64,000 bases of DNA, taken from Antedon mediterranea. Taxonomy: Eukaryota; Animalia; Echinodermata. The notes beneath the pieces were generated by a model. It had not been told where the DNA came from and made no database searches. It saw only the letters and a list, made by a program, of their open reading frames with translations. Shown here in pieces: positions 1 through 45,157 of the stretch. The position numbers and the translations under genes are program-made. Each line of letters opens with the position of its first letter. Position 1 is the stretch's first letter. The DNA lies in contig NC_092672.1 of NCBI RefSeq assembly GCF_964355755.1, positions 7,068,001 through 7,132,000 on the forward strand, given 5' to 3'.

Positions 1-2688
1 ACATGCATAGTTAATTGAAGGTAGTGCTATAGTTTTCCACAAGATATTACCAAAATAAATCCTATTAAAATCTTCTTGCTCATTAAAAATGGACTTGATA
101 TATCCAATTAATCTATTTCCTTTTCTAACTACATCATTAACATGTATACTTTCGGAGAAGTTTCTTGAAATATTCACTCCCAAGTATTTGTAACAATCTA
201 CTTCTTTGATGAAGTGGTTTACAAGAGGCCATTGTTTAGTTTTATTAGTACGTTTACCAACAACCACAACATTTGATTTGTCATAATTAAAGTTAAGTTT
301 CCATTTTTTGGAGAAAATTCCAGCGATAGATAACATTTTCTCCAGATCATTTTCATCTTTAGCAATCAAGACAACGTCGTCAGCCCAAAAAAGACAGCTA
401 ATTTTTGTGCCTAAAGTATGACATCCGACATTTTCATTATATAACATTTTGGAGAGTTCATTTATAAAAATACAGAATAAGGTCGGTGATAATACGCAGC
501 CTTGCTTAACCCCTTCATCGACATCAAAATAATCAGTTACAATATCACCAAACTTAACATTACATTTGACGTTTGTATAAAGTTTATCAATAATTTTCCA
601 GACTTTACCACGGATACCAGTATTCCATGCTATTGACAAAAGGCCATTACGCCAAACCGTGTCAAAAGCCTTACGGAAATCCAGGAAGGCTAAGTATGTT
701 AACTTATTTTCCGCATTTCGCGTAGCCAATATGCTTTTAAGTGTAAATATGTGGTCCTCACATCTATGATTTTTCCTAAAGCCTCCCTGGATTTCCGTAA
801 GAATACTATTACTCTCAAGAAATTCTGAGATACGATCACAAATAATACGATTGAAAATTTTAGCAACACATGATGATAATGTGATACCTCTATAGTTATT
901 TAAATCGTTCTTGCTACCTTTTTTATGGATAGGTATAATGATCCCTTTATTCCACTCGGTGGGAATTTTCTCTGATTTAACAAAATAGTTAAAAAGATAT
1001 GTAAGTGACCTAATAAGGCAGTCACCTCCGTTCTTTAACAATTCGTTAGTGATGCCATCAACACCAGGTGCTTTATTGTTTTTAGAACGAAGTATTGAAC
1101 TTTTAACATCTTCAAATGAAATTCTTATATCATCCAGTACTTTTTGTGGATCATCATTAACATAATTTATATAATTTTCCCTAATATCAGAAACATGACT
1201 ATTGATAACTATATCATTATAAGTATTGACACCAGTTTGATTACCCAAGTTACTCCAATAAATTTTAATCAAGTTAGCCATAACCTGTTTGTCTGAGGTA
1301 ACTTGTGTAGAGTCGGGAATTTTTAGGTTAGAAGGAACAATTACCTTCTTAGGCCCCCTTAATTCGTTCCAAAAGTCTTTAGAACTCTGACCACCTGCTT
1401 TCGCTATGGCAACACTTTTGTCAACTTTCAATTGCATCATTTTATTTTTTATTACATTTTTCGCTTGAGTTTTTTTCATTTTATAATCCTTCCATAAAGC
1501 ATCCCCCTTATCAAGATCTGCCCTATTATGTTTAGACCATGCACGATGCTCCTTACAAGCACGTTTACGTTCTTGAATGGCAGTGTCTATTGTCTTATCC
1601 CACCATTGTTTACTTTTGCTTTTAACATCCTTAAAGCCAATTGTATTATTAGTAACTGAAATAAGAGTATCTTTCCATTTTTCCCAACCATAATTTATAT
1701 CACTAATATCCTCAAGGTTATTATTAAACCAAATGTTGTCAAATTTATCAATAATTGAATTTTTGTAAGCAGACCAGTCTTGATCGCTTTTAATATTCCA
1801 AACTTGTCGTTTATTATCATTCGAATTTTTTACATTAGTATTATATTCAAATTTAAGATAGGCTAGTAGCACATTATGGTCACTACCCATGTGGTAGTTT
1901 CTTTCCTCATCGATGACCATTTTATGTATAAATTTATCGACACTACACGAGGAAAGCACATAATCAATGCAGCTTGAGTGTGGGTGTCTAAACCAAGTTA
2001 TCTTTCCAAAACATTTTTGTGAGCAGTTTAGAATATTTAGCCCTGTGTCAATACTAAAATTTATCAAACGCTCCCCATTAGAATTAATTATGGGATCACC
2101 ATTACTTACATTATTACCTATTCTGCCATTAAAATCGCCTACAATTAAGATAAGTGGGTCACAATTTTCAACTTCATTTTCAATTTGAATTATTTCAGAG
2201 AGTAGTTGGTTATATAGTTCATCAGCAAGGTCAGGATTAGACCCCTCTACTGGAAAATATACCACAGCAATATTAAGCAATTTATCACAAATTTTAACAA
2301 AAATCCAACATCTCTCAATGTCATCACAAAACGAATCATAAAGATTATCATCTAAAACAGTTACTTTATCTGAGACAAGTAGGCCAATACCTCCTCCCCC
2401 TTTTCCTACTCTATTTTTACCATACCATTTAAAACCATTTATCCTTATAGACTCATTTGATTTAAGAAAAGTTTCGGCAATACCAAATATGTCAATTTTA
2501 CAATTAATTAAAAAATTCTTAATTTCATATAATTTGTTTTTGATTCTGTTAACATTATTGAATGCAATACTTATGCCAATGTTAGAGTTAGTATTAGTGT
2601 TAATATTTTTACGGTTACCACGCCTAATCCGTTTTTGTTTAGCATTAGTATGCCACCTGTTGTTGTCTTTGATATTGCCGGCATAATC
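1..2688 (-). CDS. LINE-A ORF2: apurinic endonuclease plus reverse transcriptase (partial, runs off the window)
   Basis: Manual translation in one frame gives ISIAFNNVNRIK..DIFGIAETF, GGGGIGLLV, IVGDFNG, IDYVL, GSDHN (EN) and AFLDFRKAFD, GVKQGCVLSP, FWADDV (RT). The ORF track lists no terminated ORF in this frame, consistent with it being open to position 1. First Met is only at 1920. Confidence 0.92.
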
Positions 2689-4131
2689 CTATGTCCGTAC
2701 TTGACGCTGAATGCTCATCTGGCGGCATAAATAAGGTCGTCGTCCAGGTATGAAGGATTTATGACCAAATTCATGACAGGTATGACATTGTACTGGTTCA
2801 GAGTGTCTACATTCATCAGTTATATGGTTCGAAAGTCCACAAAAATCACAGCCATGTTCAATGGGCCTGGCGAAATTACCAGTATGATATGTATTCCAAC
2901 TGTCCCTGGAATCCTCAACATTGTATTGCTGTTGTCTGAATTGCTGATTATAGTAGCTATTAACTTCCTCATTATAATGCTGCTTGTATGGATATTGAGA
3001 GCCATAATCTTCACTGTATTGCTGGTTTGGGCGAGATCGCCGATGATGTTTAATCCGCCGTTGTCTCTTAGTTTTTGAAGGAAAGCGAGTCTCTTTACCT
3101 GAACGATGCTCAGTAGGGTTGTCACTAGAATTATACAAGTCTTGGCGTGGTTTGAGTATGGTGTGTGCTTTATTAATGTTACTTAGCAATCTACTTGTAC
3201 CTACTTTGGTAAGGTGAAGACCTCTTTTGTCTAGAGTAGACCTGTCAGCATCATTATTCTTTAGTTTGAAGGTTTCATCGTTATCGATTAGTGTGCAAGC
3301 ATGTTGATTCGCAATATGTTTAAGCCCAGTATTAAACTTGTCAACTCTTTCTTGATGCGCGTTGTCATCAGTACGAGGGCATACTGTTGAGAGCACTTTA
3401 GTTACAGAGGGTGCGGCTACATTTAGTTTAGTAATGAGATCGTCATATTCAGTTAATCCTAATACAACATTGTCGTCTTCAGTGCAGTCATTTGTTCCAA
3501 CATGTATAATAATAGATGAGAGGTTCTCTACAGCGACAGATTCCAACTGATTACGAATACCCTTAACTTTGCCACCACGTATACACATAATATTTATAGT
3601 GTTGTCTAAACCTTGTTCACGAACGTCACGAATCATCGAGTCTCCAATTAATAAGTGTTGGATAACTGGTTGAGACATAGGCTCTGCATTATTGCCCTTG
3701 GCTTCCATTGTGGGGTATTGTACTTGTTGGTCATCAACATGTTTAGCCTCCATTACTTTGATGACATCTTGTAGGGAATTTACTTTGACCAGAATATTTC
3801 TAATTTGATCTTCTTGCACTTCAACTATCTTAGTAAGGTTCTTGACTAAAGATGGCAGAGATTTACATGTTTTACATATCCAAGCAGATGGCTTCTTTGA
3901 TTTAATTCCAACGCATTCCCTGTGAAACATCTCCTTACATAGTGTGCAATCGATCATTTGATTCACTTCACGATGATCATTAAAACAGCCCTCCACACAT
4001 TCAATAATCGTAGAAGTTACCTTAGTTTTTGAAGTACTGGTAGAATTATCCTGCGATGAGATCCCATTAGATATGGAACCTAGGCCCATATTTGGGTCCA
4101 CTTGGCTTGTTTGAGGTACACAGGAAGCCAT
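2689..4131 (-). CDS. LINE-A ORF1: PHD finger, coiled coil, SGNH/GDSL esterase, CCHC zinc knuckle(s)
   Basis: MIDCTLCKEMFHRECV..WICKTC (PHD); IGDSM, HVGTND, GLHL (SGNH blocks); CDFCGLSNHITDEC. The track's ATG at 4242 lies in host flank, so M38 (4131) is the likelier start. Confidence 0.88.
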   Translation of the reverse strand: MASCVPQTSQVDPNMGLGSISNGISSQDNSTSTSKTKVTSTIIECVEGCFNDHREVNQMIDCTLCKEMFHRECVGIKSKKPSAWICKTCKSLPSLVKNLTKIVEVQEDQIRNILVKVNSLQDVIKVMEAKHVDDQQVQYPTMEAKGNNAEPMSQPVIQHLLIGDSMIRDVREQGLDNTINIMCIRGGKVKGIRNQLESVAVENLSSIIIHVGTNDCTEDDNVVLGLTEYDDLITKLNVAAPSVTKVLSTVCPRTDDNAHQERVDKFNTGLKHIANQHACTLIDNDETFKLKNNDADRSTLDKRGLHLTKVGTSRLLSNINKAHTILKPRQDLYNSSDNPTEHRSGKETRFPSKTKRQRRIKHHRRSRPNQQYSEDYGSQYPYKQHYNEEVNSYYNQQFRQQQYNVEDSRDSWNTYHTGNFARPIEHGCDFCGLSNHITDECRHSEPVQCHTCHEFGHKSFIPGRRPYLCRQMSIQRQVRT

Positions 4132-4628
4132 TCTTTGTGCATACAATGCTGATACAATAGGCAAACAATGGCCTAGGGAGCTGAGATAAACAACGTCCAC
4201 TCTGTTTGGTGATCTAATACACAAGTCTGAATGGTTATTCATTCATTCACTATTATTGCCATAAATAAACGACAAGAAAAAAAACCAGATAACACCAACT
4301 TATAAAATGGCGATATGAGGTTATTGGGTTGATAAAACTGATTCTGTGTCTTTATTATAGGCCTATGGTAATTTATTTTGGTTTGTTGTAATTTATCAAA
4401 ATCTCTTCTTAATTCGGTTCCTAACCGATTAACAACCAATAATGCTTGTAATAATTATTAATCAGAAATTGATTACTGTGTACATGCATACGTTCAAAAT
4501 TAAGGAAATTAACACTTCACTGCATTATATCACAACTTATGAAATAATGTTTACAATAGCATTTTTGTTTGCGGTGTGTCAAGACCGGAATTCAGGTTTT
4601 ATTTTCTGTGTGTGCTGAGAATTGAATT

Positions 4629-5011: not shown

Positions 5012-5216
5012 GTTCGTGTATTATTTCTATACCTTTTTCAAAAGAGATCCTATACATCATCATCATCATCAAGTAGCATAATTGTGAAACCTTGATGGAT
5101 TATTTGTAATATACCCTGCTTACTACATTCATTCTTTCTTGGAGATCCAAGAAACATTTATTATATATGGCCTTTGGCCCAAATAATATACAATGTAATA
5201 CAATATTAAATAAATA

Positions 5217-8200
5217 TCAGTTGAGTGCGTTTAAAAATTCTGTTCTACGTTTAAATGAAAAAATTAAATATTTTCCAAGTTTAACAATAAGATCAGTATT
5301 TGTGCCAGACATAAGATAAATATATTTTAATTTAGTTGGGTTGTTTGTATAAAAGGAAAACATATATTTAGTTCTAATATCTGAATAAAATGGACAAACT
5401 AAAGTGAAATGATATTCATCTTCAATTGATTGTAAAGCACATAATTTGCATAATCTTTCATTTCTATTTATACAATTCCATCTTCCTTTTTCAATTACTA
5501 ATTCTAAAATTCCTAGTCGTATCTTAGTCATAATTTGTCTATGTTTGTAATTTGTTACTTTTGTTAGATATTCTTCAATTCCAAACTTATATTTAATGTG
5601 CTTGTAATATTGGAGCTTAGAGTGTAGCCTAGTATCTTCGTAGAATTTCTGTCGTTCAATGTCTGTAAGCCTTTGTTTAAAATTTGAAATAAAAGTATAT
5701 ATATTATTAACCTGTTGTGAGTACCATATGTTACCAAATCCATTTATGCATAGTATTTGTTTTACGTCATTGGCCCAACATTGCTCATTTCTTTGAGCTT
5801 TTCTATATTGAAAATCATAACATTGTTTAATAAATTTGTCATTATCCATTTGGATTACTCTTAGCCAATAACGAATTATATTAATGATAATTTGAATTTG
5901 GATAGTGAATCTTCCACATTCTCCTCTCACTGCAACACTTGGTGCAGAATTACCTATTCCTAGAATGTATTTACAGAATCTTAGATGAACTTTCTCTAAT
6001 ACTGATATATCATTTAAACCCCATATTTCGCTACCATAAAGTAAGATTGGCATAATCTTAACATCAAATATATGGTTCCATATATTAACTTAGAGGTTAC
6101 CAAAACGCCTATGGGTCAATCCTTTTAATGTGAACAAAGCCTTATTAGCTTGTTGACAATTGTATTCTTTGGCTTTATTCCAATTACCATTTGAGTTGAA
6201 AACAACTCCTAAATATTTAAAGGATTTGACAATGTCAACTGTATTTCCATTGTAATTCCATTTTTCAAATTTGTTAAGATTACCACCATTCTTAAACACC
6301 ATAATATTACTCTTGTTAACATTGACAGTTACATCCCATCTTGTACAATAGGTAGATAACTTGTTTAAATAATATTGTAGACCATAAACGGTATCACCAA
6401 ATAACATAAGGTCATCTGCATAGAGTAAATGATTAATTTTTAGATTTCCTATTTGGATTCTATGCTCGTCGCCTTCCTCATTTAATGTTTCACTCAAATC
6501 ATTAATAAAAACATTAAATAAAAAGGACGAGAGTGGCGAACCCTGTTGTATACCTATTAGACATTTGAAAGAATTACTAATATTGCCGTCGACCTTAACA
6601 TGTGCTGATAACTTATTGTACATTGAATTAATAACGTTTAACATTTTTCCTTTTACTCCTCAATTTTTTAGTTTTATGTGAAGATATTGATGTCCTACGG
6701 AGTCAAAGGCTCGTTTAAAATCAATGAAAGCAACATATACTTTCCCACGTTTTTTTCCTAGGTATTTATTAATGATTGTGTTAAGAATAAATACATTATC
6801 CGATGTTCTGAACCCCTTTCTAAAACCGGCTTGTTCCTGATGTAGAATGTTATTATCTTCTGCCCAAAATTGTAATCTTTTATTAATAATATGTAAGAAA
6901 ATTTTAGCAAAAACAGGAATAAGTGATATTCCTCTATAATTCTCTGGTTGTTCTTTGTCACCTTTTTTAAATATTGGGACAATAAGGCTGGTTGCCCATT
7001 GCTGTGGAAACTGTCCTGTATTATAAATTATATTATATGATTTTGTTATTAGATTGATTACATTTTGAGATGAGTGTATAAAAAGTTCTGGTAATAATCC
7101 ATCGATTCCAGGTGATTTACCTGTTTTTTGGGATTTAATGGCATGAATTACCTCATCTACTGTAATGTCATTATTTAGGTTAGGTTCGTTTTCATTTACA
7201 GCAGGTTCATCATTAATGATACTTTCTACATTTTGATTATCTCTATTTTCATTATTATGAAATAAGGATTCGAAGTGAGTGCGCCATGTATTAATACATA
7301 TGTTACTTGGAAAATTTGGTTTTGTTTGTTTTAGTTTAATCCAGAATGATTTGGAGTTTTTTTCTCCTAATGATCTAATCAATTCTGTACGTGATCTTTT
7401 AATATAGCTGTATTTCTTATTTTTTATTAATGTTTTATATTCTTTTTTTATTTCCAGGTATGCATTAAGCAATGTTTGTGTACGATTGTGTCGGAATCTA
7501 TTTAAACTTCTTCGAACTTTGTTTTTAAGTGCAAGACATTGATTGTCATACCATGTGTCTTTAGCTTTAGTTGTTTTATTGTTGGATTTCCTATGGATAA
7601 TTCCTTTACATGCATATTCATACAATCTACCTACAGTTGAAACAGCTTCATCAATTAGGTTATCATTAATCAAGTTAGTTATTTCATTTTTAAGTTCATC
7701 GATTTTATTATGCTGTAATCTTAATTTAAATGTTTCAGTATATGTTTCTGACCAATTCAGTGGGACAGCCAGTCGACAAATCGTGTCAAATTTCGACTCG
7801 GAGAGGGCGCCCTACTTTTCTAATTTAGTTCAAAATTGCTAAATTTTAGGGTGTTGGAAAAACACAATATTTGTAAATTTAGCTGATTATCGGAAAAATA
7901 TTGTATGTGAAATAAATTCATAAATGGTTTTAATATATTGTCATGTAAAATTAAATGTATTTGAACAAAACGATAATCTGTAATTTAACGGCAAAATCAA
8001 CCAATGTCTTTTTTTCGAAATTGTACCCTAGAAAATCATTAAAATAAAATATTTAGAAAAATTGAACAGTCCTGAATTTAAAATCCCTGTTAGAAAAATT
8101 AATAATCTACAGAATACGATATTAAGATACAAAATTCGGTGGTTGGGATGCAGCTCCGACTATTCAAACTAAAGGTACCACTATTTGTTCCATCGAAAAC

Positions 8201-11117
8201 TAGCGAAACCGCCATTTTGTAAACACATCGTCATCGTGTTTATGAATTTATTTATATCGAACGATATACGCGATGTTTATAATTGTCCGCGTATAAGAAT
8301 TCATATAAATAAATACATTCCAATACAACGTATATTATTACTTGTTTATTTATCACAGTATACATTTTAGTTGAGGAATATTTATCATAACTATTATAAT
8401 AGCTTTTATACGAGTCCGAGGCCTAGCCCTATTAGCGACCGATTGTTCCAGGGGCGGAAAGTCACTTAGTGACGTTGTGATCGGGCGCGTCGGGCCTAGC
8501 TAATATTAATAATATGACCTGAAATAAGCGGCTAACAAGAACTGTTATATACTTGCTTACAATTGTTTTGTTATTGATGAACAAACAAGCAATTAGATTG
8601 AATAACAAATTATTTATTCATTTTTTTGGGGTAAAAACATGTACAAACTAGTACTGTATAATAGAAATTATAATAATAGTAATTTTAAACTAATACAGTA
8701 TTAATAAAATATAAAATAGGCCTAAAATACAATAAATATTCAATTTTTAAGGTCTACCACATGACAATAACATAATTTACAGAGTATAGTGTAGTAGGTT
8801 TGCATTCAACATAAATATTTGTATGTATTGTAATTCATCTAAATCCTCTGCAACATACATATATATTTGTAATTCAACATGTTGTTTTAAATAATTAAAT
8901 TATAGTTTGGGTATGACAATGTCGATAGGTACCGGTGTCATCTTTTTATCCACTTCACTCTCAGTTTGAAGTCACAAAGACAAAGAACTCTGCATCATCA
9001 ACGATTTGAGTCCTGAAAGTGTCAGAAAAAATAATAAACATTATTTTAAAAAAACGTTAATGTCTGGTTGTATATATAATTATAATATAATATTATATGA
9101 TGACATAAAAGTAAGGCAAATGGAAGCTGTATTTTATTAATTAAATTACAGTATTTACTATTATTATTTATATAATCTAGGCCTACTACTAGTACTAGTA
9201 GCCTGCTAGGCATCTATTGAGCCTAATAAATCAAATAATAAATGAAAAATAAAATAATAATATTAATACTGATTGAAAAAAAGTTTTTTTTTTTGCGGGG
9301 ATCAGATCACCAGGCTAGGCCGGCCAGGACCAATGATACTCGTAATCAGTACAACTTAACGACTATCGGATCAGCATCAACACAGTACAACACACGTCTC
9401 GCTATCGCCTATATACTGACACACGTGTCTCGCGTTGCCGAAACCACGCTCACAGCTAGAAAATGTACCTACCTTTCGAGGCCTGAGAATACACCAACAA
9501 ATTTTGAACAGGATAGAAATATATCATACTCGATTAAACTAATATTATTCTTGATAAAACAATTGATTATAATTGTTTTAATTTGTTGGGATGCACCTCC
9601 GACTATTCAGAAAATGGACAACAAAACAGTAGTCAAATCGTACCACATTTATAAATTTCACGAGTCCCGACTTCAGTCGCCGAATGTATTGTATTAGCTT
9701 CGGTTTCTTTGAAGGAAACCGATTGGTTATTCAATAATACTTATTAGGAAATGCTTTAACCATAATAGGTAATGTTGGGCGGGTCTTAAATATTTATGAG
9801 AGCTTAAAATAAAACAGCACTTATTTGCTAGGCGACGAAAAATCGTGGTTTCAGTTTTCAACGATAGGTGGCGCTTCAAAATCGTCAATGCGGAAGTAAG
9901 TCGATTTTACACGATTTAACGGTCAAAACGCGAAGTGGCTTTCCCACTGAATTGAATTTAGTTTGTTTGGGACAATTTTCAATATTTAATTTTTTTATTT
10001 TTATATTATCTTTAGTTAGTAGGCCTAATTGAAACGTAATTGGCATATGATCAGATTCTATTCTATTTTCTACTTTCAAATCTGCTATGTACCTGAAGTT
10101 ATCAGCTTTTGTCAATATATAATCGACTACGCTTTTGCCTTGTTGTCCTATGAAAGTGTAGCTTTTACTATACATTGGGTTAATTCTGCCATTAGCAATT
10201 CTTACATTTGTTTCTTTACAAACATTGAGAAGATCTATGCCATAAGTATTCGTGACGTCATCTTCATTAATTCTAATTGTTACATTATCTTCATCATCTT
10301 CAATATATAATTCGTTATCCCAATCTATTGGGCATACATCGTTGTTGACATAATCCAATAAATCTCCTGTTTTACCATTGAAGTCTCCAACAATGAATAT
10401 TTGATTTTTATTATTATATTTATATAAATATTCAGCGTATTCGTTTGTAAGTATTTCATATAAATTGTTATTATTAGCATATGGGGAGTTTTGTGGTGGT
10501 CTGTAAACTACAGCCATTATTATAGAATCGTTCTCCGTTTTGATTCGTAACCACATAATATACTTAGATAAGCTAGGTAATTCTTTAACTTTGATATTAG
10601 TTTTATAATATATCATAATTCCACCTGTATTTCTACCACGGTGTTGTAACTTTTCTTGCATTTTACTTATACAATTATATCCCTTAATATAGTAGTCATC
10701 ACTAAAAGTTGTCCAAGTTTCAACCAAACATATTACATCGAAATCACAAATAAATTTTATAAATTCACAATCACTAAAATTACTTTTTAAACCATTTATA
10801 TTCCACACAATAGTCTTTAAAGAGTAGGACGTGTAAATACTTTTACTTATATTTTTATTTGTAACATTGGTATATATATTGTTATTATTGACGTTGTTAT
10901 TCCTATTATTAACGTCGGCGTTTATGTTATCGTTATCTATACCATTAGTTTGACCATTATTAGTTGTATTGTCAATATTTTCTTTTTCATGATTTTCGTT
11001 ATTATTCTCACCTTTATTATTATTATTATTGTCATTTACGTCATTATCAACAATTGTACCAATAATATTATTACATTTGTTGTTTATTTGATATGTGTTT
11101 GGGCCATGGCCGGACCC
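5217..11117 (-). pseudogene. LINE-B ORF2: endonuclease, RT and C-terminal Cys/His motif, disrupted
   Basis: VWNINGL, CLVETW, GDFNG, SDH (EN); FIDFKRAFD, QQGSPLS, YADD (RT); CKLC..EDEYHF..C. All pieces share one frame once the 7758-9949 insert is removed (KTKFN-like junction reads QTKFN|WSET). In-frame stops TGA at 6660 and TAA at 6090. Confidence 0.9.
7758..9949. mobile_element. Non-autonomous TIR DNA transposon with 4-bp AATT TSD (Sola1-like)
   Basis: Termini CAGTGGGACAGCCA and TGGCTTTCCCACTG; AATT at 7754-7757 and 9950-9953; removal restores the LINE-B ORF2 frame. No transposase seen; superfamily inferred from the AWWT TSD. Confidence 0.8.
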
Positions 11118-12104
11118 CTATCTAGGTTTATATCTACTATACTTAACTACTTTATCATTATCTATATCATATGTAAAAGTTTCGTCATCAATAATGAGTT
11201 TATCGTATCTTATTTTGAACGGTTTTCCGCTTTTAATAGCTTCATCTATTTTTGGTTGTAAATTTTTTCTGATCTTACGAACTCTTGCTGTGTAATCTTC
11301 GCTGATAGTAATTTGTTTCCTTCTTTCACCCCGGTCTTCATTTTTGTTCATTTTTCGACGTTGTGTTCTACTTGCTTTTAGAACATTTTCTTTAGTTTTG
11401 TAATCTTTGAATTTCACAATGATCGGTCTCGGTTTAAATCTTGCGTTGAGCCTATGTGCCCTCTCAATCTCAATATTCTCCCCACCAATACCGAGATCAT
11501 TTGTAAAGTGTTCTTTTACTTTCTTCTCACTCTGATCCCAATTCTCATGTTCGCTATCTACCACTCCATATACTATTAAGTTGTTACGTCTGCTTTGACC
11601 TTCAATTTTGTCTATATGTTTGATTAATTGTAAGTTCATTGTTTTAAGTTGTTGATTTTCTTCTTCTATTATTGTCATTCTTTCGTTTAGTGAGTCCATG
11701 TTGCTATTTAGTGTATCAATTTTTTCTTTTACGCTTTTAACATCTCCTGAAATGTCATCCATTTTCTTATTCAATTTCGTGTTCATTGTTTGTAGTTGTA
11801 TTAATATATTTTGTATTGAAGGTTCATTTCCTCCCGCATTCAGCGCAACTTGTGTTGTTGCGTCTTCCGTTGTGGGTTTACCAGTAAGTTCATCCAATGT
11901 AGCTTGTCTAGTGTAAACTGGACCTGGATTGCTTTCAATATCGCCGGCCAAAAAAAGTAACAAGCATAACGCAGATAGTCGTAGTGTAGGCCTAGTTCTA
12001 ATGACTGCACCTAAAGAACCATGACATTTTATGCGCTTTTGTTTATTTCGTTTTCCTCTCCAATATAGTCCTATTCTTAACCGGTAATTATCAATGTCAA
12101 TCAT
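11118..12104 (-). CDS. LINE-B ORF1: N-terminal 2A-like peptide, coiled coil, RRM and CTD (L1-ORF1/transposase-22-like)
   Basis: LLLFLAGDIESNPGP; heptad-rich helix; SRRNNLIVYGV, IERAHRL, PRPIIVKF, ISEDYT motifs. Confidence 0.9.
   Translation of the reverse strand: MIDIDNYRLRIGLYWRGKRNKQKRIKCHGSLGAVIRTRPTLRLSALCLLLFLAGDIESNPGPVYTRQATLDELTGKPTTEDATTQVALNAGGNEPSIQNILIQLQTMNTKLNKKMDDISGDVKSVKEKIDTLNSNMDSLNERMTIIEEENQQLKTMNLQLIKHIDKIEGQSRRNNLIVYGVVDSEHENWDQSEKKVKEHFTNDLGIGGENIEIERAHRLNARFKPRPIIVKFKDYKTKENVLKASRTQRRKMNKNEDRGERRKQITISEDYTARVRKIRKNLQPKIDEAIKSGKPFKIRYDKLIIDDETFTYDIDNDKVVKYSRYKPR
11919..11963 (-). other. 2A/StopGo ribosomal skipping motif (GDIESNPG|P)
   Basis: Exact D(V/I)ExNPGP consensus preceded by a Leu-rich helix, at residues 55-62 of ORF1. 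Confidence 0.85.
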
Positions 12105-15621: not shown

Positions 15622-16624
15622 TAGCTGAAAACCGGTTGAACTGCCCGAGTACAGCATCATAATGTTGAAGACAGGCCGATTTTCTTAAAAAAATACTATT
15701 TTGATAGATTTAATTTACGTTTTTACAAATGTATTGATTTGCGATGAATGGAACATTCCAATCTCTCAGTCTGCCAGTTTGGTTTAACACAAGTAGGTAA
15801 ATTTATGAGCCCTTGGAGAATAAACTTGCAATACTTTGACAATACAGTACTGCAAATACCTATTAACCATTTTTGGTCGTCATTTGAATCGAACATTTCT
15901 TACTGTGAATACTGTTAGATGTAAAAAAATATATACAAACATTTCTTACTGTGAATACTGTTAGATGTAAAAAATATATACAATAAACTTTATTACTGTG
16001 ATTATGGGTAGGCTCTACTGTAGTGTTAGATATATAAACACGTAATATACAAATAAACTTTATTACTTCTCAACGTTTGCATTAATTAATAATTACAAAA
16101 AATATAAACGTCGTAGTGGTGTATCGTTACATGTACTTTACTATTTCAATCGACTATGACAGTGACAGTTTTAACAAAGTATTAAATCGCAAATGTTTTA
16201 CTATATTTAGTCACCGGCCGTTAGTGGTATATTATTTATAGGCCTATAAAAAATGAAAACAATATTTCGTTACTGACGTGGATAAAGAATATATTTAAAA
16301 ATTGTTCCTCTTTCCCATCCCTTAACCCTAATTGGGTTTCTTAAAATGAATAAACAATTTGGACTCATTTTGTGGTAAGTTTCTCTTTCGGAAGTAATTC
16401 CCAGGGTGCTAATTTTGGTTGACTACATAAATCATTGTGTCTACTTATTCGTTTCTGTAAACGGCAATGTATTATAGTCCTGCGGTACGTGCATTTAAAA
16501 TCGCCAGATTTTTTACCCTGAAATTACTGTGTATTCGAGAACCATCTGTGGGCACGACCTAGATGGTACGCGAGCGAAGCGAGCGTACCATCTAGTTGTT
16601 ATAATTCAGTGAAAGTTAGACAGC

Positions 16625-16975
16625 GTCTTCTTCTTCTTTTCTTCTTCATGATTTAACAGTCCACTACAGGATATCGCTCCTCCAAATCTCTCCATTTACT
16701 TTTCTCTTTTGCTATTCTGAACCAGTTGTTTTCTCATGTCATGTCATGTCATGTCATCCCTCCATCTCCCTTTGAGTTTGCTTCTTTTCCTTTTCCCTAT
16801 CCTTGTCTGCCAAACTGTATAGTCCTGCTTGTCCACATGTTTTTGCTTGAAGTAGATCTCTGTTTATTATATCTTTCCTTTTGCATGGTACCTTGTTCAT
16901 TATTGTTATGCCAAGTATTTTCCGATCTATTGCATACTGGGTTGATCTTAACTTATCCTTCTTCTCAGTAAGTCT
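16625..16975 (-). mobile_element. Degenerate RTE-type LINE 3' fragment (also at ~44225-44585)
   Basis: KLRSTQYAI(D/E)RKILGIT resembles the RTE post-RT TQRAMER..LG motif; (GAA)n-like tail. Confidence 0.55.
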
Positions 16976-17091
16976 CAAAGTTGAAAAGAAGAGAAAGAAG
17001 AAGGTTATTACACACTTCATCTAAATTATAGTGAATGGAGTAATATTATAGAAAAATGTGATCTAATGCAAGGCTCTTCGGTTTATTTCAG

Positions 17092-17567
17092 ATTCAACCT
17101 TGTATCCCGATCCAACTTTGTACCCAGATTCAACCTCGTATCCAGATACAACCTTATATCCAGTTTCAACTTCATATCCACATTCGACCTTTTATCCAGA
17201 TACAACCTCATATCAAGATTCAATCTCATATCCAGATACAACCTCATATCCAGATACAACCTCAAATCAACATTCAACATCATATCTAGATACAACCTCG
17301 TATTCAAATTCAATCTCAAAGCCAGATACAACCTTATATCCAGATACAACCTCATATCAAGATCCAATATCATATCCAGATACAACATCATATCCAGATA
17401 CAACCTCATATCCAGATACAACCTCAAATCCTCATACAACTTCATATCCAGATTCAATCTCATATCTAGATACAACTTGGTATCCAGATTCAAACTCATA
17501 TCCAGATTCACCCTGGTATCTAGATCCAAGCTCATATTCAATATTTTCTTCAGAATATTATTACTCT

Positions 17568-17600
<33 letters not shown>
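17092..17600 (+). repeat. Coding 18-bp minisatellite (YPDTTS, ~24 units) plus (TAC)n poly-Tyr
   Basis: tatccagatacaacctca units inside exon 2. Confidence 0.9.
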
Positions 17601-20600
17601 GAATATTTGTATTGTGAGTTTAACGAATATTATTGATTTTTTTTTTCAGCTATTTGTTTAATAAGTATCAACAATTATGATTACAAGCAAATATACCTGT
17701 CCTGGGATGGGTTTCAAATAATATAGTTTTACATTCATTTTAGAAAAAATGTATAGATTATTTAGACCAGTTGTCATAATCACATTGTAATCTATTTTCC
17801 AGATAACAATGAAGTTATAAATCTTGTTGGTGGCAATGTAAAACGAGAAGGTCGACTTGAACTGAAAGGTGATATTTCTGGTACTGTTTGTTCTGTTGGC
17901 TGGACCGAAGCAGATGCTGCATTAGTCTGTAAGAGTCTTGGTTATGAAGGTGTTGACGAATATTTGGTGTATAGCTTTGGAGAAGGGAATGGGACAATTT
18001 GGTCGAATATTAATGGTTGTATTGAACATCCTACGTGTAATCCAACGGATTCAACAGAAGATCCACAATGCACTCATGCAAATGATGTCGGGATAGTATG
18101 TTCACCTTGTAAGTTAACAGGGAGCTTCGATTTGTTACGACCAACCTAGGCCAGGTCAACCGATGTGTCGGCGGTCCCTCGCCTGAACACAGAAACCGTC
18201 AAATCTGTGTCGAGGTGGAGATCGCGGACACACGTCCAAATAATTTCCTCATGGTCGCCGGTCGTTTAAAAGCGAAAGCTTCTAATATTAAATTGTAATT
18301 TCAAAAAATCATGCATGTACCACTTTGAAGCTCAACTTGTTTACCCCTTTTTTAAAGTGACAATTCGACTTGTTGGTGGTGATAATCTGAATGAAGGGCG
18401 TGTAGAGTTTAATTATTTTGGTGAGTTTTCAACAATAAGTGATCTACATATCAGCGAAGCCGACGTCATTTGTCGTTCGCTTCCCTTTCCTTCTGCTGAG
18501 TTCTCGGATTGCTGTGGAATATATGGTACTGCCTTTGACCTGCCTTCTTATCAAGTCGAATGTAAAGGAAATGAGAAAGAATTATCTGCCTGTTCGATAT
18601 ATACTACCTATGATATTGACCAACAATCTGGGATTAGATGTTCAACTGGTAAGAATATGCAATGCAATATTGTTTGCCAAAAGGTATCTGATGAGTTTAG
18701 AATTTCTTTATAACATTTCTATCTATTTCTTTGTATATTAACATTTGTACTAAATTTAACCCGCACTGATTATGTCAATGATAATAAATGTATGACAATT
18801 ATTATACATTAAATAGTATTTTCTTAAAACAATTTAGTGTACTTAAAAGTCTTATTTCACAATATATTATTATAACACCAGCTCCTCAATTTTAGAGGTT
18901 TTCTTTTAAAGAAACATGTACTAGGCCTACATCTTGTAAATGTATTAAAGGGCGGAGAGAAGATTCTGGGTGGGTATTTTAATTATTAATTTATCTTTTA
19001 ATAGTGGTTATGATATTTCCTCAGATGGCGTAAGATTAACTGGACAGTTTGAATCAGATGGACCACTTGAAATCTTTACAAGCTCTGCTTGGCATAAAGT
19101 ATGTTCGGTTGATTTTAACATTGAAGTTGGCGAAGTAATCTGCAGTCAACTCAACTTTGATGGTGTTTTAAATGTCACTGACATTGACAGTGACAACGGA
19201 ACAACAACCATACGAGAAATTAATTGCACAGGAATGGAGAGAAAATTTGAAGAATGCTCTTTCAATATTGTGCCTGAACAAATGTGCACAAGTTTTGTGA
19301 AGCTGTCATGCATTGGAAGTAAGCAAATACAGTACTTAAATATACATTATTAAGCAGGGACAAATTCTTGATATACAAACATTAACTTTCCCTAAGTTGT
19401 TATATATTATCTTTTTATATTAATCCACACGTCGACGTTTCGAATTTGTCTGAAAAATTTCGAGCTCAGGTATTATAAGTATGAAACGCCATGTGTGCCA
19501 AAATATTTATGTTTTACCAATATTATATTCAGCCTATAACCAAGACATTTGACATTAGAACGTCTTCTTTGGGACACTCTATTTAGATAAACACCTTTAC
19601 AGAAAACATCCTTTTCAGAGGAAACCTCTTTTCATGGACATTTAGGCCTCCGGGTAAAACGAGGGGCAAACATTGTATATTAATACTGTTGACAGACTCT
19701 CAGTTGAATCTCTAAAGTTTCCCTTTAATATGTGTCCATTGTTGTAAACATAAGATATTCTTCATCCAGCTACGAAATTTATAGTAAAAAATGACTGACC
19801 TTTAATCAACAAAATATTGTTTTCTTGACAGAAAAAATGTTTTAATAATGACATACTGCAGCTAATAATCGTAAGCCATTTGTCTATATTAATTTGTATT
19901 TATAATAATATTTACAGGTGGATCAAGATTTGCTGATGGGTATACTAGGAATTCAGGGTATGCGCAGGCATACATTAATAGCGAATGGAATTATATTTGC
20001 GACAGTGAAAGAAGAGTTACTGAATTTATCTGCTTACAAGAGCAATCAACTGGTGTTCACTTAGTACGAAACCAATACCCATTCTACATTTCTGACGAAT
20101 ACGCTGATTGTGACATCACACCCGAAAACAGTCTACAGTGTAGTCAAAGCTTGGTTGATTGTTTTCCTTATCTTATTTATACGGAATGCTCAACGGGTAT
20201 GTAATTTTTGTTTTATATGCCATCCCTGAGTTCAAATCCTTCATCTAATTTAAGCCTAATTAACCCTTCATAAAATGCATGTTGAATTCAATAAATGGTA
20301 GGTCTATAGGTCTAAATCTGTGTTAAGTGTTAATTAATCGTTTCTAAAAGAGTTGTTTCTGACGGTACTTAATGCTTGGATAAATATTTTGCAATAACTG
20401 CTTTAAAATCAGAACGTCCATCCATACTATTTGTCATGTCATCCGCATTATTACTATGATGTCCGTCAGTTATAAGCCTCTGATGACAAATGCAAATAAC
20501 GATCGACAATCATCTAAATTCATCCATTCTTTATCTACAACACATCTTCTTCACAATAGTATAACATACACTGGTCTCCAGTACCATGAACCCCGAATAC

Positions 20601-23600
20601 CAATTCCACGTTCTTGGTATTTATGCCGTTTGTTCATTACGTCATTCTATTAACTAGTCAAGCACAGCGGGGAGTAACTAGTGCCATCATTTTGTTTTAA
20701 AGATGAGCTTATGAGATAATACTGTACCGCAATTTATATTTAGATGTTGTACGAATCAAGGGAGGAGGTCATCGTGGATTTGTTCAAATCTTCAAAGATG
20801 GCAAATGGAATTATATTTGCAGTGAAAACTGGAATGTTCAGACTACTGAGCTTGCTTGTAAAGAACTCAACTTTCGCTCCACTTCTACAGTGACTGGTGT
20901 TGGTGTAAACACAACCGCCGTAGTACCCGATGCTCAGATCATTATGTGTGATGGAAGTGAATCGAGTTTGCTGAATTGTCAATTTGATACCAACATGCAA
21001 TGTAAACGTCATGCTGTACAAGTCACGTGTTCTGACGGTGATAATTTGTGCTTTTTTGCTACACTACTATTGTCCTATTATTGTATTATTTTTGTATAAA
21101 TTAATTAAATTTGTCTAGACCTATCTATACTTACTTTTTCACTGCCACATTCGTGATTTTATGATAGGAGTATTGGGTATTTAGCAAGAATAGGATTACC
21201 TGTAGTAACTAGTGCTGATAAGTAGCGACATCTTTCTTTTATCTTACTCTACAGTTGGTATACGTCTTAGAGGATCGCCAGTAAAGCATGCTGGTCGTGT
21301 GGAAATATACAACAACAACCAGTGGTGGACGGTTTGCGATGATTATTGGGATACCAATGACGCGAACGTGGCATGCATTATGGCGGGTTATTCTGGAGCT
21401 ACCAGAGGGTATCGTGAGGCAGCGTTTGGTGAAGGGGTTGGTCCTATTTTGCGCTATGATTTTTTTTGTGACGGTGATGAAGACGACTTATTTGATTGCC
21501 CATTTGGTACACATTCCGATGGATTCTGTTCACATTACGAAGATGCAGGAGTGATTTGTTCTACAGGTACGTTTCAGATCTTTGTATATGTGTACCAAAA
21601 TAATCCAAAGGCATAACACCATAAAGGAGTATAACTGGGTTTACATGCAAAATTCACACATTTTTATACTTTTTATACAATAAAAAAAACACTACAAGAC
21701 CTTGAGATTTAGTGTTCAGATTCAAATTCATACACATTAATTAGGTTATTTGACAATAACTAGGGCCCGCACTAGAAGCAATAGCTTGTATCATGAGGGC
21801 CCCTACAAAATAAATATAAATATGCAAAATAAATAAAAAGAAACATCCCGTCTTAATGTCTGCCCTTTCATGTTATCGTCGCGTAATTGATGTTATTGTG
21901 CCGTGATTGTAATTTGTACGATTAATTAAAATGAATGTCTTGTTCCTTGTAACAGATATAATTCGTCTTTCTGATGGAAGCCCATCTGCCGGTCGGGTTG
22001 AACTATTTATCAATGGCCAATGGGGAACTATTTGTGACGATAACTGGGACATAAATGATGCCATTGTTATTTGCCGACAATTAGGGTTTGACAGAGCTGC
22101 TAACGCATACGACATGGCTAGATTTGGTCCTGGCAAAGGTCCAATACATTTTGATGAAGTTCAGTGTGCGGGAAGCGAAACCGATATCTTACTGTGTAAC
22201 ACTAAAATTATTCATGATTGTGAACATTCTGAAGACGCAGCGGTGTCCTGTGTTTCTGGTAAATATTGAACAAAATATATAAGTTAGAGTTTTTTTTTCA
22301 CAGTAGATTTTCCGTCAGATGTTACACACAGTTGTTTATCTTTTTCATCTAGTCAGACGAATATGTGGTGAATATTAATTTACAACATTTTGTTGTTCCA
22401 TATTTTTTTTTGGACCAATTAGTTTGTGGCGAGTTAAACTGTGGCCGAGTTTACTTGGGGTCGAGTTATGTATGGTAGATAAGATAGATGATTAAATATC
22501 AAATACCTATCATCAATACGTTAGGCAATAAGGAGTATCTAAACATTAAATTGAAGCTCCCTTAATAAATCAACATTATTTTCATTGTAAGCTGTACTCT
22601 TTTCCTATTTAGACTCATCTGTGACTCCGTCATGGTTGAAACCATTTAACAGTATTCTGACAAAGGGTAAGTTACCATAAGATCAGTAATAACAAAGTAA
22701 ATGTTATATTAATGAACAATGGACAGAGAATAAGAAGTATTATTCTCATCTGCCATATTCTATAATAAAAAAGAAACGAAAATGAATAAGAATGCAAGCA
22801 AAATCATAATTTATCGAATAAGATAGTAAGATTGAAATGAAAAGATAATATCAAGAGTAATGAAACATAAAAGAGAGAAAATTATTACATTTGATTTTTA
22901 ATTTAACAAAATAAAAATAACCTATACTAGCAGTAATGATAGCTTTGATAGAAGCTCTAAGATGATAGACGATACAATTGTTATTTCTAAGAGCTATAGT
23001 GTATAAACGGAGTATTTAATCGAACGTTCCGATCTTTATTTGAGATCTTTATCAACTCACTGCTTGTTGAATCCAATAGATTCAGGATCAGTTAAAAAAT
23101 AAAATTATTGTTAATTTAAATGAAGCGAATAAGCAAATCACCCGTCGTAAACATTGAATTTTCAACAAAGTGTTCAATTTTTGTTTGCAGGTTGTAAAGA
23201 CTATTGGTTTCAAAACGATAATTCTTGTCTAACAGTTATACATACAGAGCATAGTACTACGCTTTCCGAATTGTCTTGTCCAGAAGGATCGTCAGTTCTT
23301 TCAGTAGACACAGAAGTAGGCATGTTAGGAGAATATCTTCGAATAATTTATTACTATTATGAAGAAATCACTCTTAAACTATTTCTTTGGCAAGATGGTA
23401 AATCAAAAACTTGCACTTTTTTTAATCGTACTGGTGATAATGGAGACACATGGGATGTGATTAGTGTACCGGCAATACAGTGTAACGACGTCTATGCTTA
23501 TGTTTGTAAAATGGATATTAAAGGTACAGTATTTGTAATGTCTCTATGCCATTGTACAATTGTTCTGTATTTAATCATCTACTCAATGATAACATTAATG

Positions 23601-26600
23601 AACGAGTCTTGTGGTTAATCACGTGTGAAACCAAATTTTATAGAGAGTGGTTCAGTACAACATACAGTATTTGTTAAATATACATCATCACATACCTAAC
23701 ATTTTAAAGTATTTATTTGATTAATTCAAACAAATTAAATTTTAGATCAGTCTCAAACATGTTCAAACAATCAATTCAGATGTTTATCTGGCGCTTGTAT
23801 TCTAAAATCATTACAATGTGACGGAAACTTTGATTGCCCTGACAACAGCGATGAAGATGAACAATATATTCAAGGTAATATAGTAGGCCTATATCAGTAT
23901 TATTCTCGAGATATTCTCGTGTATTTCTGGTGGAATTTCTCTCGTTTTCACGACGTAGGCATCCGCGGTCTAAAGGGAATTCTTCTGCGCAGACAAAAAA
24001 GTACAGGCCGAATGAAGATAGTTACCACCGGTAAAGTACTATAGGCCAGGAATGAGTAGTTCTTTTTTCAAAACCAAAAATTAGTGAAACTAACCTGCTT
24101 GACAGCTTCTTTAGAAGAATGGCTATAGGCTATAGGCTTCGCATATTCCATATTATGTATCAATAATATTGCGGTTTTTCTTATTTTAGAGTGTTCCGAT
24201 TCGTTGGACGGCCACGGCTATCGGGGGACAAAGAACAAGACAACAAATGGAATACGTTGTATAAAATGGACAAGTAATTTCAAAGGAACTGATGCGATAT
24301 ATCCAGTAGATTACATTGGTAAAGGTATTGGGGATCACAACTTTTGTCGGAATCCAAACGGAAGACAACAGCCATGGTGTTATACAGAGGATTTTTATGA
24401 AGTTGAAGATTGTGAAATTCCATTATGTGGTGAGGAAATGAATATCAGAGTCTATTGTATGCAGTATTTGTTTCAAACAATCTCTTATGGCCAAATCAGA
24501 CAGCGTCGTATGACGAGGCGGGAAAACATTAAACATGTTTAAAGTTCTCGTGACGACCTAAAAACTGCACCTGAAGCTAGCTCAAGACGACTCGTTTCGT
24601 CGGGATTCAACTCAGACAGCACCGACGAGTCAAGACGTTGCGTTTCACTAAAACCTATTCCAAAGTTTTGGTAACAAGTTGTTATTATTTGGGTTATAAC
24701 ACTATATCATTTTTTTAGATCAAGTTTCAGATGCAGATTTAAACAATTGTCCAATCACAAGCTTCCAGTGTTCAACAGGTCATTGTATTTCCTATTCATT
24801 CCGTTGTGACCATAAACCAGACTGCCCAGATAGCTCAGATGAACAAGATTGTAGTAAGTTTATGTTCACATGACTGTTATATTGTTATTTTGGATAAAGA
24901 TTTGTGCAAAAAAAAGAAAAATAAATAATGTATACGCTTTGTACTTTGTGCATAGCGCACCGCATAGTCACTTGTTAGGCGCACTCACTGGGCCACTCAG
25001 TGCTTTAAAATGCGCATAATACATGTTTTTTTTTAATGGTAGTATTCAGGAATTGCACCGATGTCGAGTTTTCCTGTGATAATGGACGCTGTTTACAATC
25101 TTCATTGCAATGTAACATAATTAAAGACTGTTTAGATGGAACAGACGAACTAAAATGTGGTAGGCGGTTTTTTTCCTGAATAACATGACATAACATTAGC
25201 ACAACATTTTATTGTAAGGGGAGTTTACAGTTGGAGAGATTTTTTTGGATATATTGTCTTACAGTGCATTATGCCTCATGTAATGTATACAACAACAAAA
25301 GACTGATAGGTTGTAGATACAAAATGGGAAGATCTTTAATGTATGGAAAATTAGACGTTAAACTAGTCGTTGAAGGTGAAGCCTAGAACGTGCCACACTG
25401 CAACTGCAATTGTATTAAAATAATTTCGCTCGAGTAACAAAAGTGCTGTATATATCCATTTATTTTTTCCGGTGCAAGTGTCACTTAATACAGTTATCTT
25501 TACCAGGTGAATGCAGCTCAGGTTTTTTACGATGTAGTGATGGTAAATGTTTGCACCCAAAATTCAAATGTGATCGAATAAGAGATTGTCCAACAGGAAT
25601 TGATGAGCCCATGGATGAGCCAAATAATTGCCGTAAGTAGTAGCAATCAAATAGCCTAATCACTAACATTTCACATTTCATTGAGTTTAGACAGGTATTT
25701 GAAGCAAGTTTTTCTTAAGTGAACATATAAATGATGACAGTGACAAAACTAGACTAGCTTTATCATTTGGAGGCAAGTTATCGCTAATTCTTAACTTGTG
25801 TTGTCATTCCTATTATAGAATATACTGATACAAAATCGTTATGTAATAAAACAGAGATGGTATGCGAAAATGGCATTTGCATCGATCAGCGTCACCTGTG
25901 TCTATTAGACTACGATGTGTATTCAGACGACGTTATAACAGGTTGTCGAGATCGTAGTCACTTACAACATTGTGGTGAGTTGAGTTGTTTCATGTGTTGT
26001 GCAACCTTCGTATTTATTCAATATTATAATCATACAACGATCCTGTTTATTCAGGAACGATGGTACTTGACAAAAATGTATAGTTTAACTTTGTATAACA
26101 TAAAGGTTTCAATTGCTTTGTTTATCGTGCATTTTCTACTTGTCAGAAGTTATGACACGCCATATATGCCTTTTTAAAAAATTAAGTCAAAACACCTGGA
26201 CCCGAAGACTGTCATATGAAAGTACTTTTCGTGAATAGGTGCATTTTGTAGGATTGTAGATAATAAATAAATAATTTTGTTTGAAAAATCCAGTAAAGTA
26301 ATTACTCACATTCTTTAGCTTTCGCCATCTTGGCTGACGGCTTGATCACAAGTGATCCGGTCCACGGCTACTTCCTGGAAATCTGTTGATTGTTTCTAGG
26401 TGACGTCATACTTTTTCGTAGCAATGATGTGTATACGTGATCGAGAAATACAGCTCCTTCGTCGTGGTTGATTGCGTTATACCCCACTCCTCTCTTTCTG
26501 ATTTGGATTGCTTTTACTTTGTAAATTATTTGTTTTATTTTTAAAGTGTGAATTATTTAAAGTACGATTGTTTTATTATTTATTATAAACAGTTTTCATT

Positions 26601-32124: not shown

Positions 32125-33703
32125 AGGGGGATTCTGGGTTTAAAATTGCTTTTAAATATCGTTTATTTCTTAAATAAAAAATATTATAACAATATAGACA
32201 TTTCAGAATGAAGAAGTAATAACGAGAAATTAAAAAAATTAAATTTCATATACATTTTAGGGTAAATTCATGGAAAGTCTGTTTTTTAGCAGCTTAGGGA
32301 AGCTCATTAATATTCATGAGATATTCACAAAATCACGTCACCAGTGGATTCCAAACTCGCGACGTCATGTACGTTGTGTTTGTCAACTAATTTACATCTC
32401 TCTCCCCTGTCAAACGACGACCACCATTGTGATCATTGTGAAATACATTTTTTTTAGATTTTCTAAGCTAGGCCTAAAGTGTAATAATAACAGTAGTAGC
32501 ATATATTTATTTGACATTTAATGAAATACAAAATTTAGTACAGATACGGAGTCATAAATTATACTATTTTTATACCTCTATAGTACAGATCGTATTATCG
32601 GCTTCACGTACAATACTACTCTAGGCCTAGCCTAATAATAATATATATGGGCGAGAGCCATTCTGACTAGGGATTCCATGCCACGATGGCTACGTTAAAA
32701 CAATGGGGCCCATGGGCCTAGCTAGCCTACTACTAGACGATTGGCCCATAAATAACAAAACCCATCCTATCAACCAAACTCCTAAACAATCTAAACCTAA
32801 AACATTCTACAAAATCGGCTGTAAATATTGAAGCAAAACAAGGTCCGATCGCCGTCCACACGTATGGTGTCCCGATCGTCTAAGTAGGCCTAAAATAAAT
32901 AGGTTTAGTTTACTCTCCAAAAAAGCGGATACTCATGCATCAAGCAAGTAGACCAGGTAGTAGGAAGGAGACCTAGCCGATCCGGCCCAGTTAAAAATTG
33001 AGCTAGTAGTGTAGTAGACCCTATGCGAATTGATACTACCAGGCCTTTTACGATAGGCTGTACTACACAAATATTCCAACTCTCTCATTCGAGCTATATT
33101 ATCTATACCATTCCGGTAGGTCGAGTCGACCTTCAATCAAATACTGTACATCGTTCATGTTGTGATTATAGACGGGGTATACTCGACCCGACCAGTTTGG
33201 TGTTGTTGTATCTGCTTATCACGTGACGATGCCAGGCATGGGCAGCAGAGAGAGCACGTGTATCGTCGTCTCGCTCGATCCTCAGCAGGAATGTACAGTA
33301 TACGTTACGCTTCATTGATTTTGATTTTTCCCTAAGTCGGTGCGAAAATCGGCAAACGTAAAGTGCAAACATATCTAATTTTTCACTGTTTTGATGAATT
33401 TTCATAAAAAATTGACTTTATAAATGGGAAGACCGACTAAAATTACATCAGATAAGTATAATTTTACAAAAGTAATTGATATGGTTTATGATAACGAGTC
33501 GTCGGAAGATGGACCATTTCACGAATTTCCTATTTTGTAACCACAGTGTGATTTTGCCGTAGCTGCACTTGTAATCTGGCCTGATTTCACAGCCTTCGTT
33601 CTGCTTCACTGGGCGCTTATATAAATTGAAACTTTTACCGTTCAAGAGACAAACAAATATATTTTACATTTTTTACTATTCATTTTAAACCCGGAACCCC
33701 CCT
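32125..33703. mobile_element. Non-autonomous Kolobok-like DNA transposon
   Basis: 22-bp TIRs with 20/22 match (agggggattctgggtttaaaat), TTAA on both sides, purine-purine termini. Confidence 0.8.

Positions 33704-45124: not shown

Positions 45125-45157
<33 letters not shown>

Follow-up and report, generated by a model that had tools for sequence, protein, structure and literature searches.

In-frame UAG-G junctions suggest programmed stop-codon readthrough between ORF1 and ORF2 of RTEX-type LINEs

Structure of the LINE-B junction

The window analyzed here is a 64,000-nt stretch of the forward strand of Antedon mediterranea contig NC_092672.1 (positions 7,068,001 to 7,132,000), and all coordinates below are those of the window. 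It contains two distantly related long interspersed nuclear elements (LINEs) on the minus strand, LINE-A and LINE-B. In LINE-B, the first open reading frame (ORF1) is separated from the endonuclease and reverse transcriptase (RT) frame (ORF2) by a single TAG stop codon, which is the subject of this study. The features around this codon are as follows.

11118..12104, minus strand: LINE-B ORF1 (328 aa), with its ATG at 12104, a hydrophobic N-terminus, a coiled coil and an L1-like RNA recognition motif and C-terminal domain
11118..11120, minus strand: the single TAG between ORF1 and ORF2, with A before it and G after it; predicted readthrough codon
11098..11117, minus strand: G-rich post-stop element, with a weak local hairpin, an out-of-frame AUG and a 9-nt complement to the 3′ end
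10809..11117, minus strand: linker of 103 codons, Met-free and Asn-rich, in frame with both ORF1 and ORF2
10047..10808, minus strand: APE-type endonuclease domain of ORF2 (Pfam PF03372, E 2.9e-08)

After the TAG, the sequence GGG TCC GGC CAT GGC CCA opens 103 stop-free codons (11117-10809) that lead to VWNINGLK at 10808, where the Pfam PF03372 match also begins. An earlier sequence-only reading had described this TAG (11120-11118) as followed in frame by 103 codons without stop or Met up to VWNINGLK, and our coordinates and translation agree with it. Its description of the linker as AT-rich and rich in Asn and Asp also held on counting (73% A+T, 36 Asn and 7 Asp). Stops number 6 and 29 in the two remaining frames of the linker. 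Only one of 20,000 mononucleotide shuffles of the linker was open, with a mean of 9.4 stops, and this null overstates the openness, since one phase of an AAT repeat readily stays open. An out-of-frame AUG at 11107, within the post-stop island, starts an ORF of 7 codons. Profiles built from relatives connect both proteins with L1: that of ORF1 matches the L1 ORF1p structures 2YKP and 2YKO (E 5e-6), and that of the endonuclease aligns to the L1 endonuclease from residue 7.

The stop codon in other copies of LINE-B

The LINE-B copy in the window is dead, because its ORF2 contains two nonsense codons (TGA at 6662-6660 and TAA at 6092-6090, in accordance with the earlier count of two) and a 2.2-kb insertion. 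We aligned public contigs from four runs (X1, X5, X6 and X9) to a 901-nt stretch around the junction. A high-depth contig of X1 (record 4, depth 891.5) covered 10868-11500 with two other letters and no gaps. A contig of X5 (record 5) covered all 901 nt with seven other letters, every one of them listed, and no gaps. The TAG was intact in both. X1 may be the source of the window itself, and contigs drop rare variants. X5 comes from another study of the same organism; it was guessed to be RNA and was not used as evidence of expression. The linker substitutions checked in X1, X5 and X6 created no stop, and three X6 contigs shared an in-frame 6-nt deletion. Most of the linker lies outside the coverage of X6 and X9. 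One further X6 contig (record 6), which runs from the end of ORF1 through TAG-GG and has the endonuclease start after a 294-nt skip, was not counted. The high-depth family contigs from two samples keep the TAG. Thus, the LINE-B TAG is not damage of one copy.

Census of related junctions

ORF1 relatives with 26-41% identity were found at 13 loci, three of them in one prokaryote assembly (G001). G371, G253, G164 and G485 came from searches over 380 and 401 prokaryote assemblies, in which G627 was left unscored. G001, G371 and G253 were searched with ORF1 and endonuclease profiles, and contigs were picked by score and length, not by their junction. Endonuclease matches numbered 151 in G001 (150 of 266 candidates scored), 35 in G371 and 23 in G253. 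So many near-intact LINE contigs suggest that these prokaryote assemblies include DNA of host animals in their bins. The census comprised LINE-A, LINE-B, 7 loci from metagenomes and contigs of G001 (115), G371 (16) and G253 (9), 149 rows in all. Removal of eight rows, four that lacked an endonuclease start and four that stayed open to the contig end, left 141 junctions. Partial loci and three loci without ORF2 (L005, L008 and L009) were excluded, and L224 from G485 had no usable junction. Members of the group that holds LINE-A and LINE-B were assigned by an RT tree (53 rows) and, for 12 rows without RT, by the nearest endonuclease. A junction was scored as TAG-type when, going upstream from the endonuclease, the first stop in frame was a TAG preceded by at least 100 open codons.

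By this definition, 56 of the 62 families in the group have the in-frame TAG, and none of the 62 has a sense codon that fuses ORF1 with ORF2, a state which the sequence-only reading had named as fatal to its proposal. These are diverged elements (endonuclease identity: median 29%, maximum 85%). The ORF1 profile confirmed the upstream frame in 36 of the 56 TAG families, found no match in 19 and matched another frame in one. The context of the TAG is also conserved. G stands at +4 in 49 of the 56 (background 27%) and A at -1 in 39 (background 25%). At least two G occur at +13 to +15 in 42 of the 56, compared with 12.6% of background codons and 3 of 32 cases after ORF2 stops. Purines at +4 to +11 rise only modestly (0.62 vs 0.54). 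The terminal stops of ORF2 in the group (n = 35) are 22 TAA, 8 TGA and 5 TAG, and the ORF1 stops of other LINEs (n = 46) are 26 TAA, 13 TAG and 7 TGA. The preference for UAG is specific to the ORF1/ORF2 junction and is not shared by the ends of ORF2.

Start codons are scarce downstream of the TAG. A Met at least five residues ahead of the conserved Asn of the endonuclease is present in 5 of the 56 TAG families but in 63 of 79 other LINEs. Two more TAG families have a Met three or four residues ahead of the Asn, which gives 7 of 56 with any in-frame Met, and eight have not even a one-mismatch start codon at least five residues ahead. The distance from the stop to the Asn varies from 6 to 549 codons. 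In 10 compact families it is 6 codons, so there is no room for an ORF2 start; the strand that aligns to L1 residues 8-14 begins there at the first post-stop codon. Among close relatives, the second post-stop residue is kept as Ser by both TCN and AGY codons, as expected if the post-stop frame is translated.

Phylogeny and clade assignment

IQ-TREE was run on 55 of 128 RT rows. LINE-B fell in a starred clade of 20 rows (99/96), which also holds L003, L140 and L142. In-frame TAG-G was found again in a separate lineage of eight elements (L151, L155, L158, L170, L174, L208, L209 and L212; 8 of 8), which we call CR1/L2-like from its RT motifs. Their ORF1s are long (635-742 open codons). TAG-G was also found in L191 and L210, and TAG-C in L177. 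A single clade for all TAG rows, with L177 left out, was rejected (p-AU 1e-4) in a test that was devised after the first tree. The CR1/L2-like lineage is a possible independent origin of readthrough.

LINE-B combines an APE endonuclease (PF03372) and an RT (PF00078) in ORF2 with a separate ORF1, which is the arrangement required of the RTEX clade. We call it RTEX-type because two of six motifs match RTEX entries; the trees contained no RTEX reference rows. Of the six, PILLYGSE (in 3 of 3 places) and LYGSEIWG (in 2 of 2), both located past the RT, match solely RTEX entries in the RTclass1 set, and the other four motifs found no match in the RTs of that set (PMC3708506). By eye, the window element resembles RTEX-1/2/3_NV. 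A search for RTEX in the supplement of PMC11203168 gave no matches.

Readthrough and the alternative explanations

We consider it likely (a probability of about 0.85) that the RTEX-type LINE-B makes its endonuclease and RT by programmed readthrough of UAG-G, as a minor ORF1-ORF2 fusion. Most ribosomes would stop at the UAG and release ORF1p, and a few would decode it with a near-cognate tRNA and continue into ORF2. Readthrough would thereby set a high ratio of ORF1p to ORF2p, like that of gag to gag-pol. The predicted signal, of the type III class, would combine the conserved -1 A and +4 G with the run of G at +13 to +15. Type III contexts are described as UAG with a 3′ G or a purine-rich octamer and a 3′ structure (PMC3542737, PMC13517186), and the 3′-adjacent G is the +4 G counted above.

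The known alternative for LINEs is reinitiation, by which ribosomes would terminate at the UAG and restart at or near it, here on a non-AUG codon; AUG-independent restart of this kind has been proposed for mammalian L1. The sequence-only reading had stated that the LINEs studied so far use termination-reinitiation. This is true of L1 and SART1 as described (PMC5972666, PMC5009743), but readthrough had already been suggested for a Paramecium LINE group (PMC5405496). Reinitiation could use the in-frame Met of seven TAG families, and an AUG or one-mismatch codon lies at least five residues ahead of the Asn in 48 of the 56. The other eight have no codon of this kind, and in the compact families the first post-stop codon is mostly GTA, GTC, GTT or CTA. 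In LINE-B no in-frame AUG was found between the ORF1 stop and the endonuclease, although a restart independent of any codon would leave no such trace. In 29 of the 56 linkers the only AUGs are out of frame (including 11107 here), and they would divert scanning ribosomes. Moreover, reinitiation needs neither frame 0, nor UAG over UAA or UGA, nor G at +4, and all of these are conserved. We therefore regard it as unlikely, and readthrough is favored because the frame, the identity of the stop and the +4 base are fixed and a start codon is lacking.

Other explanations place the event in the RNA or in the DNA copy. Since YAG|G is the consensus of a splice acceptor, TAG|G might be a 3′ splice site, and a spliced RNA would take the AUG of ORF2 from upstream. 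This would account for the TAG, the G and the absent AUG at once, but no polypyrimidine tract precedes the site (upstream pyrimidines 0.44 vs 0.46 in the background, n = 56). An acceptor also need not coincide with the stop of ORF1, and CAG versions would yield fused ORFs, of which we saw 0 in 62. No joint ending at 11117 was found in the contigs of the four runs, which drop rare forms and are not confirmed as RNA. Splicing seems very unlikely on these grounds. A-to-I editing, known from the amber/W site of hepatitis delta, would turn UAG into UIG (Trp); UAG is a preferred triplet of ADAR, which would explain why UAG alone is kept. However, the A of the UAG is predicted to be less paired than average (0.41 vs 0.51), and editing leaves the +4 G and the G-run unexplained. 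L1 ORF2p prefers its own RNA; under such cis preference, reverse transcription of the edited, ORF2p-producing RNA would put TGG into new DNA copies and remove the stop, while the family contigs keep TAG and fused ORFs are again 0 in 62. Editing is thus hard to believe. That the TAG is a nonsense mutation of this copy, as its two other nonsense codons and its insertion might suggest, is scarcely credible when family contigs carry it too. The same holds for a host that decodes TAG as an amino acid: TAG is absent from the interior of the 32 related ORF2s that reach 1,100 codons or more (37,529 codons in total), and it is the terminal stop in 5 of 35.

Several observations weigh against readthrough or reduce the force of the census. 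Six of the 62 group members lack the in-frame TAG layout. Among these, L007 and L104 (ORF1 ending in TAG-G) and L111 (TAG-C) are damaged copies with the frames out of phase, and L128 is a contig without ORF1; L003 and L140 have intact long ORF2s, TGA stops and ORF1 in another frame. Seven of the 56 TAG families lack G at +4. The counts are not independent, because the families share ancestry, and G001 alone supplied 49 of the 56 (the others being three from G371, two from metagenomes and the two window elements). The 62-member group unites three lineages, and the nodes that connect the LINE-B clade with the compact lineage (80/79) and with LINE-A (85/93) are unstarred. In the CR1/L2-like lineage, seven of eight members have a Met in the linker. 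The expectation that the linker would not tolerate frameshifts was borne out in part: the frame is kept across linkers of 6 to 549 codons, but two contigs, a diverged one of X1 (depth 101) and another of X9 (depth 2.9), carry linker deletions that shift it. Finally, type III contexts generally need structure (PMC13517186), and none that is strong was found locally. The GC-rich island reported beside the stop does exist, but its predicted folds are no more stable than those of dinucleotide shuffles (z -0.25 over 36 nt and -0.54 over 98 nt). Across the group the mean fold z at +4 was -0.39, which is no strong local structure; pseudoknots were not searched. A local hairpin as a strong stimulator of readthrough is not supported in the window or in the group.

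We also looked for longer fused proteins and obtained five matches, all beginning at or near the endonuclease, which is weak evidence. A scan of viral contigs gave no matches.

Post-stop hairpins and pairing with the 3′ end

In 11-12 of 12 close relatives, positions +10 to +19 can form a 3-bp GGY/GYY hairpin, without two-sided changes. In the CR1/L2-like lineage, seven of eight members can form a GGC-N6-GCC hairpin at +10 to +21 (mean z -1.8). The post-stop element also has a candidate partner near the 3′ end of LINE-B.

5157..5183, minus strand: 3′-terminal GGGCC-N3-GGCC just ahead of AATAAA, which may pair at long range with the post-stop element

Nine nucleotides at 11106-11098 are exactly complementary to this motif, which was also found in L004, L087, L088 and L089. 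The two sites are about 3.7 kb apart when the insertion is discounted. The 9-nt long-range duplex has a predicted energy of -23.8 kcal/mol, while the two local folds reach -8.0 and -8.6. Compared across 32 families, pairing of the post-stop segment with the 3′ untranslated region (UTR) of the same element is better than expected (p 5e-5; controls p 0.55, 0.86 and 0.05). Within subgroups drawn from the tree, this weakened to p 0.051 and p 0.019, with a p of 0.039 for one control out of six (+22 to +39). Both motifs contain the palindrome GGCC, and several contigs may miss the true 3′ end. Pairing with the 3′ end is thus marginally supported and is a lead only.

Four elements (L122, L131, L132 and L141) share a conserved block 35-140 nt past the ORF2 stop, directly after the segment that pairs best with the post-stop sequence. 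It may be part of a long 3′ UTR or a shared target site.

A more speculative proposal, which we think doubtful, is that pairing between the post-UAG element and a 3′ stem-loop might switch readthrough and couple the synthesis of the enzyme to the copying of the RNA, and that UAG-G readthrough arose at least twice in the LINE clades of animals. The 3′-terminal stem-loop would be the site where ORF2p starts reverse transcription. Such a switch would resemble the tombusvirus arrangement.

Other parts of LINE-B, LINE-A and the remaining window

The other features of LINE-B and the junction of LINE-A are as follows.

11919..11945, minus strand: candidate 2A-like (StopGo) motif GDIESNPGP in LINE-B ORF1, canonical, after a hydrophobic stretch
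7758..9949, no strand assigned: later 2.2-kb insertion in LINE-B ORF2 that has terminal inverted repeats and duplicated its AATT target
5217..7757, minus strand: remaining LINE-B ORF2, with RT and a C-terminal Cys/His finger; terminal TGA at 5219-5217
2689..2691, minus strand: TAG-G of the LINE-A junction, with a Met-free in-frame approach to the endonuclease

Many ORF1 relatives of LINE-B have a variant of the 2A-like motif without the Asp. Such motifs are reported almost solely at the starts of ORF2, in non-RTEX clades (PMC3708506). Judged by its motifs, LINE-B may carry two recoding signals, the candidate 2A-like motif and UAG-G. The terminal inverted repeats of the 7758-9949 insertion, on which the sequence-only reading was silent, begin CAGTGGGA. 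The insertion looks like a non-autonomous DNA transposon.

LINE-A occupies 1-4242 of the window, and its ORF1 has a PHD finger and an SGNH esterase; esterase ORF1s are reported for RTEX (PMC3905857). Its TAG-G is followed by 44 Met-free codons up to the conserved Asn. An X1 contig (record 3, depth 659.9) covers 2637-2822 of this junction with no other letters; the junction lies outside the contig coverage of X5, X6 and X9.

Elsewhere in the window, 16624-36510 and 44231-64000 form a direct duplication of 19.9 kb with 98.6% identity, which holds apparent exons of receptor genes (e.g. 56853-57935). It is either a true tandem duplication or an uncollapsed haplotype. A tandem pair of 1.4 kb lies at 38775-41608.

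Comparison with known systems

LINE-B resembles the gag-pol arrangement of gammaretroviruses (Moloney murine leukemia virus, MoMLV) and of the epsilonretrovirus WDSV (walleye dermal sarcoma virus), in which a structural or RNA-binding ORF is followed by UAG-G and an in-frame RT enzyme ORF (PMC13517186, PMC3542737). The G-run of the LINEs lies about 9-10 nt past the stop, and the MoMLV pseudoknot is described as beginning at +12. Unlike these viruses, LINE-B is a non-LTR (long terminal repeat) element without a protease to cut the fusion, and stable local structure, pseudoknots apart, was not found. In the carnation Italian ringspot virus (CIRV) of the Tombusviridae, which has UAG-GGR, a short post-stop sequence also finds its complement near the 3′ end (PMC3542737), as with the UAG-GGG of LINE-B. 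However, LINE-B has no large proximal stem-loop, and its long-range pairing is marginal after control for kinship.

Among LINEs, mammalian L1 and silkworm SART1 share with LINE-B a bicistronic RNA that calls for much ORF1p and little ORF2p (PMC5972666, PMC5009743); the fold of ORF1 in LINE-B is L1-like. L1 has a 63-nt spacer and an AUG for ORF2, and SART1 has an overlapping UAAUG (PMC5972666, PMC5009743, PMC3708506). The LINE-B junction has neither spacer nor AUG, and a fixed UAG-G instead. The RTEX clade likewise has an APE endonuclease, an RT and a C-terminal finger (PMC3708506).

What appears new here, judged from sequence comparison, is the probable recoding of the retroviral UAG-G type in animal LINEs; readthrough in a LINE has its precedent in Paramecium. 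In the ciliate code of Paramecium, UGA is the stop codon. Group 3 of the non-LTR elements of Paramecium tetraurelia likewise has ORF1 and ORF2 in frame across one stop, and readthrough was suggested for it from consensus sequences (PMC5405496). That group is a separate ciliate clade whose ORFs contain many TAA and TAG codons, and the passages on it mention no UAG-G context or test (PMC5405496); in our elements the stop is UAG and the hosts are presumed to be animals. Our literature search found no UAG or UAG-G readthrough in RTEX or other animal LINEs, although Repbase, Dfam or subscription papers may already note it.

Eight candidate -1 frameshifting LINEs were seen in G001 (L161, L167, L169, L173, L186, L190, L193 and L199). 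Their ORF2 lies in the -1 frame, overlaps the end of ORF1 and is Met-less up to the endonuclease, with an in-phase U UUU UUA. Of the 11 non-TAG elements that have an ORF1 but no such Met, 8 show this layout, and six Met-bearing ones also have a slippery heptamer. These layouts suggest that LINEs may use the full recoding toolkit of retroviruses.

Apart from L1 and SART1, the way in which a LINE produces its second protein is described as unclear (PMC3708506). A UAG-G junction across a lineage offers a concrete and cheaply testable answer for RTEX-like elements. It also provides over 50 diverged type III contexts from nature in which the decoding of UAG by animals can be studied. If readthrough is true, repeat annotation scores intact elements as broken or truncates their ORF2s. 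The ORF1p-ORF2p fusion would then be the equivalent of gag-pol in a class of elements without protease, and it would have consequences for how ORF2p remains associated with the RNA that encodes it.

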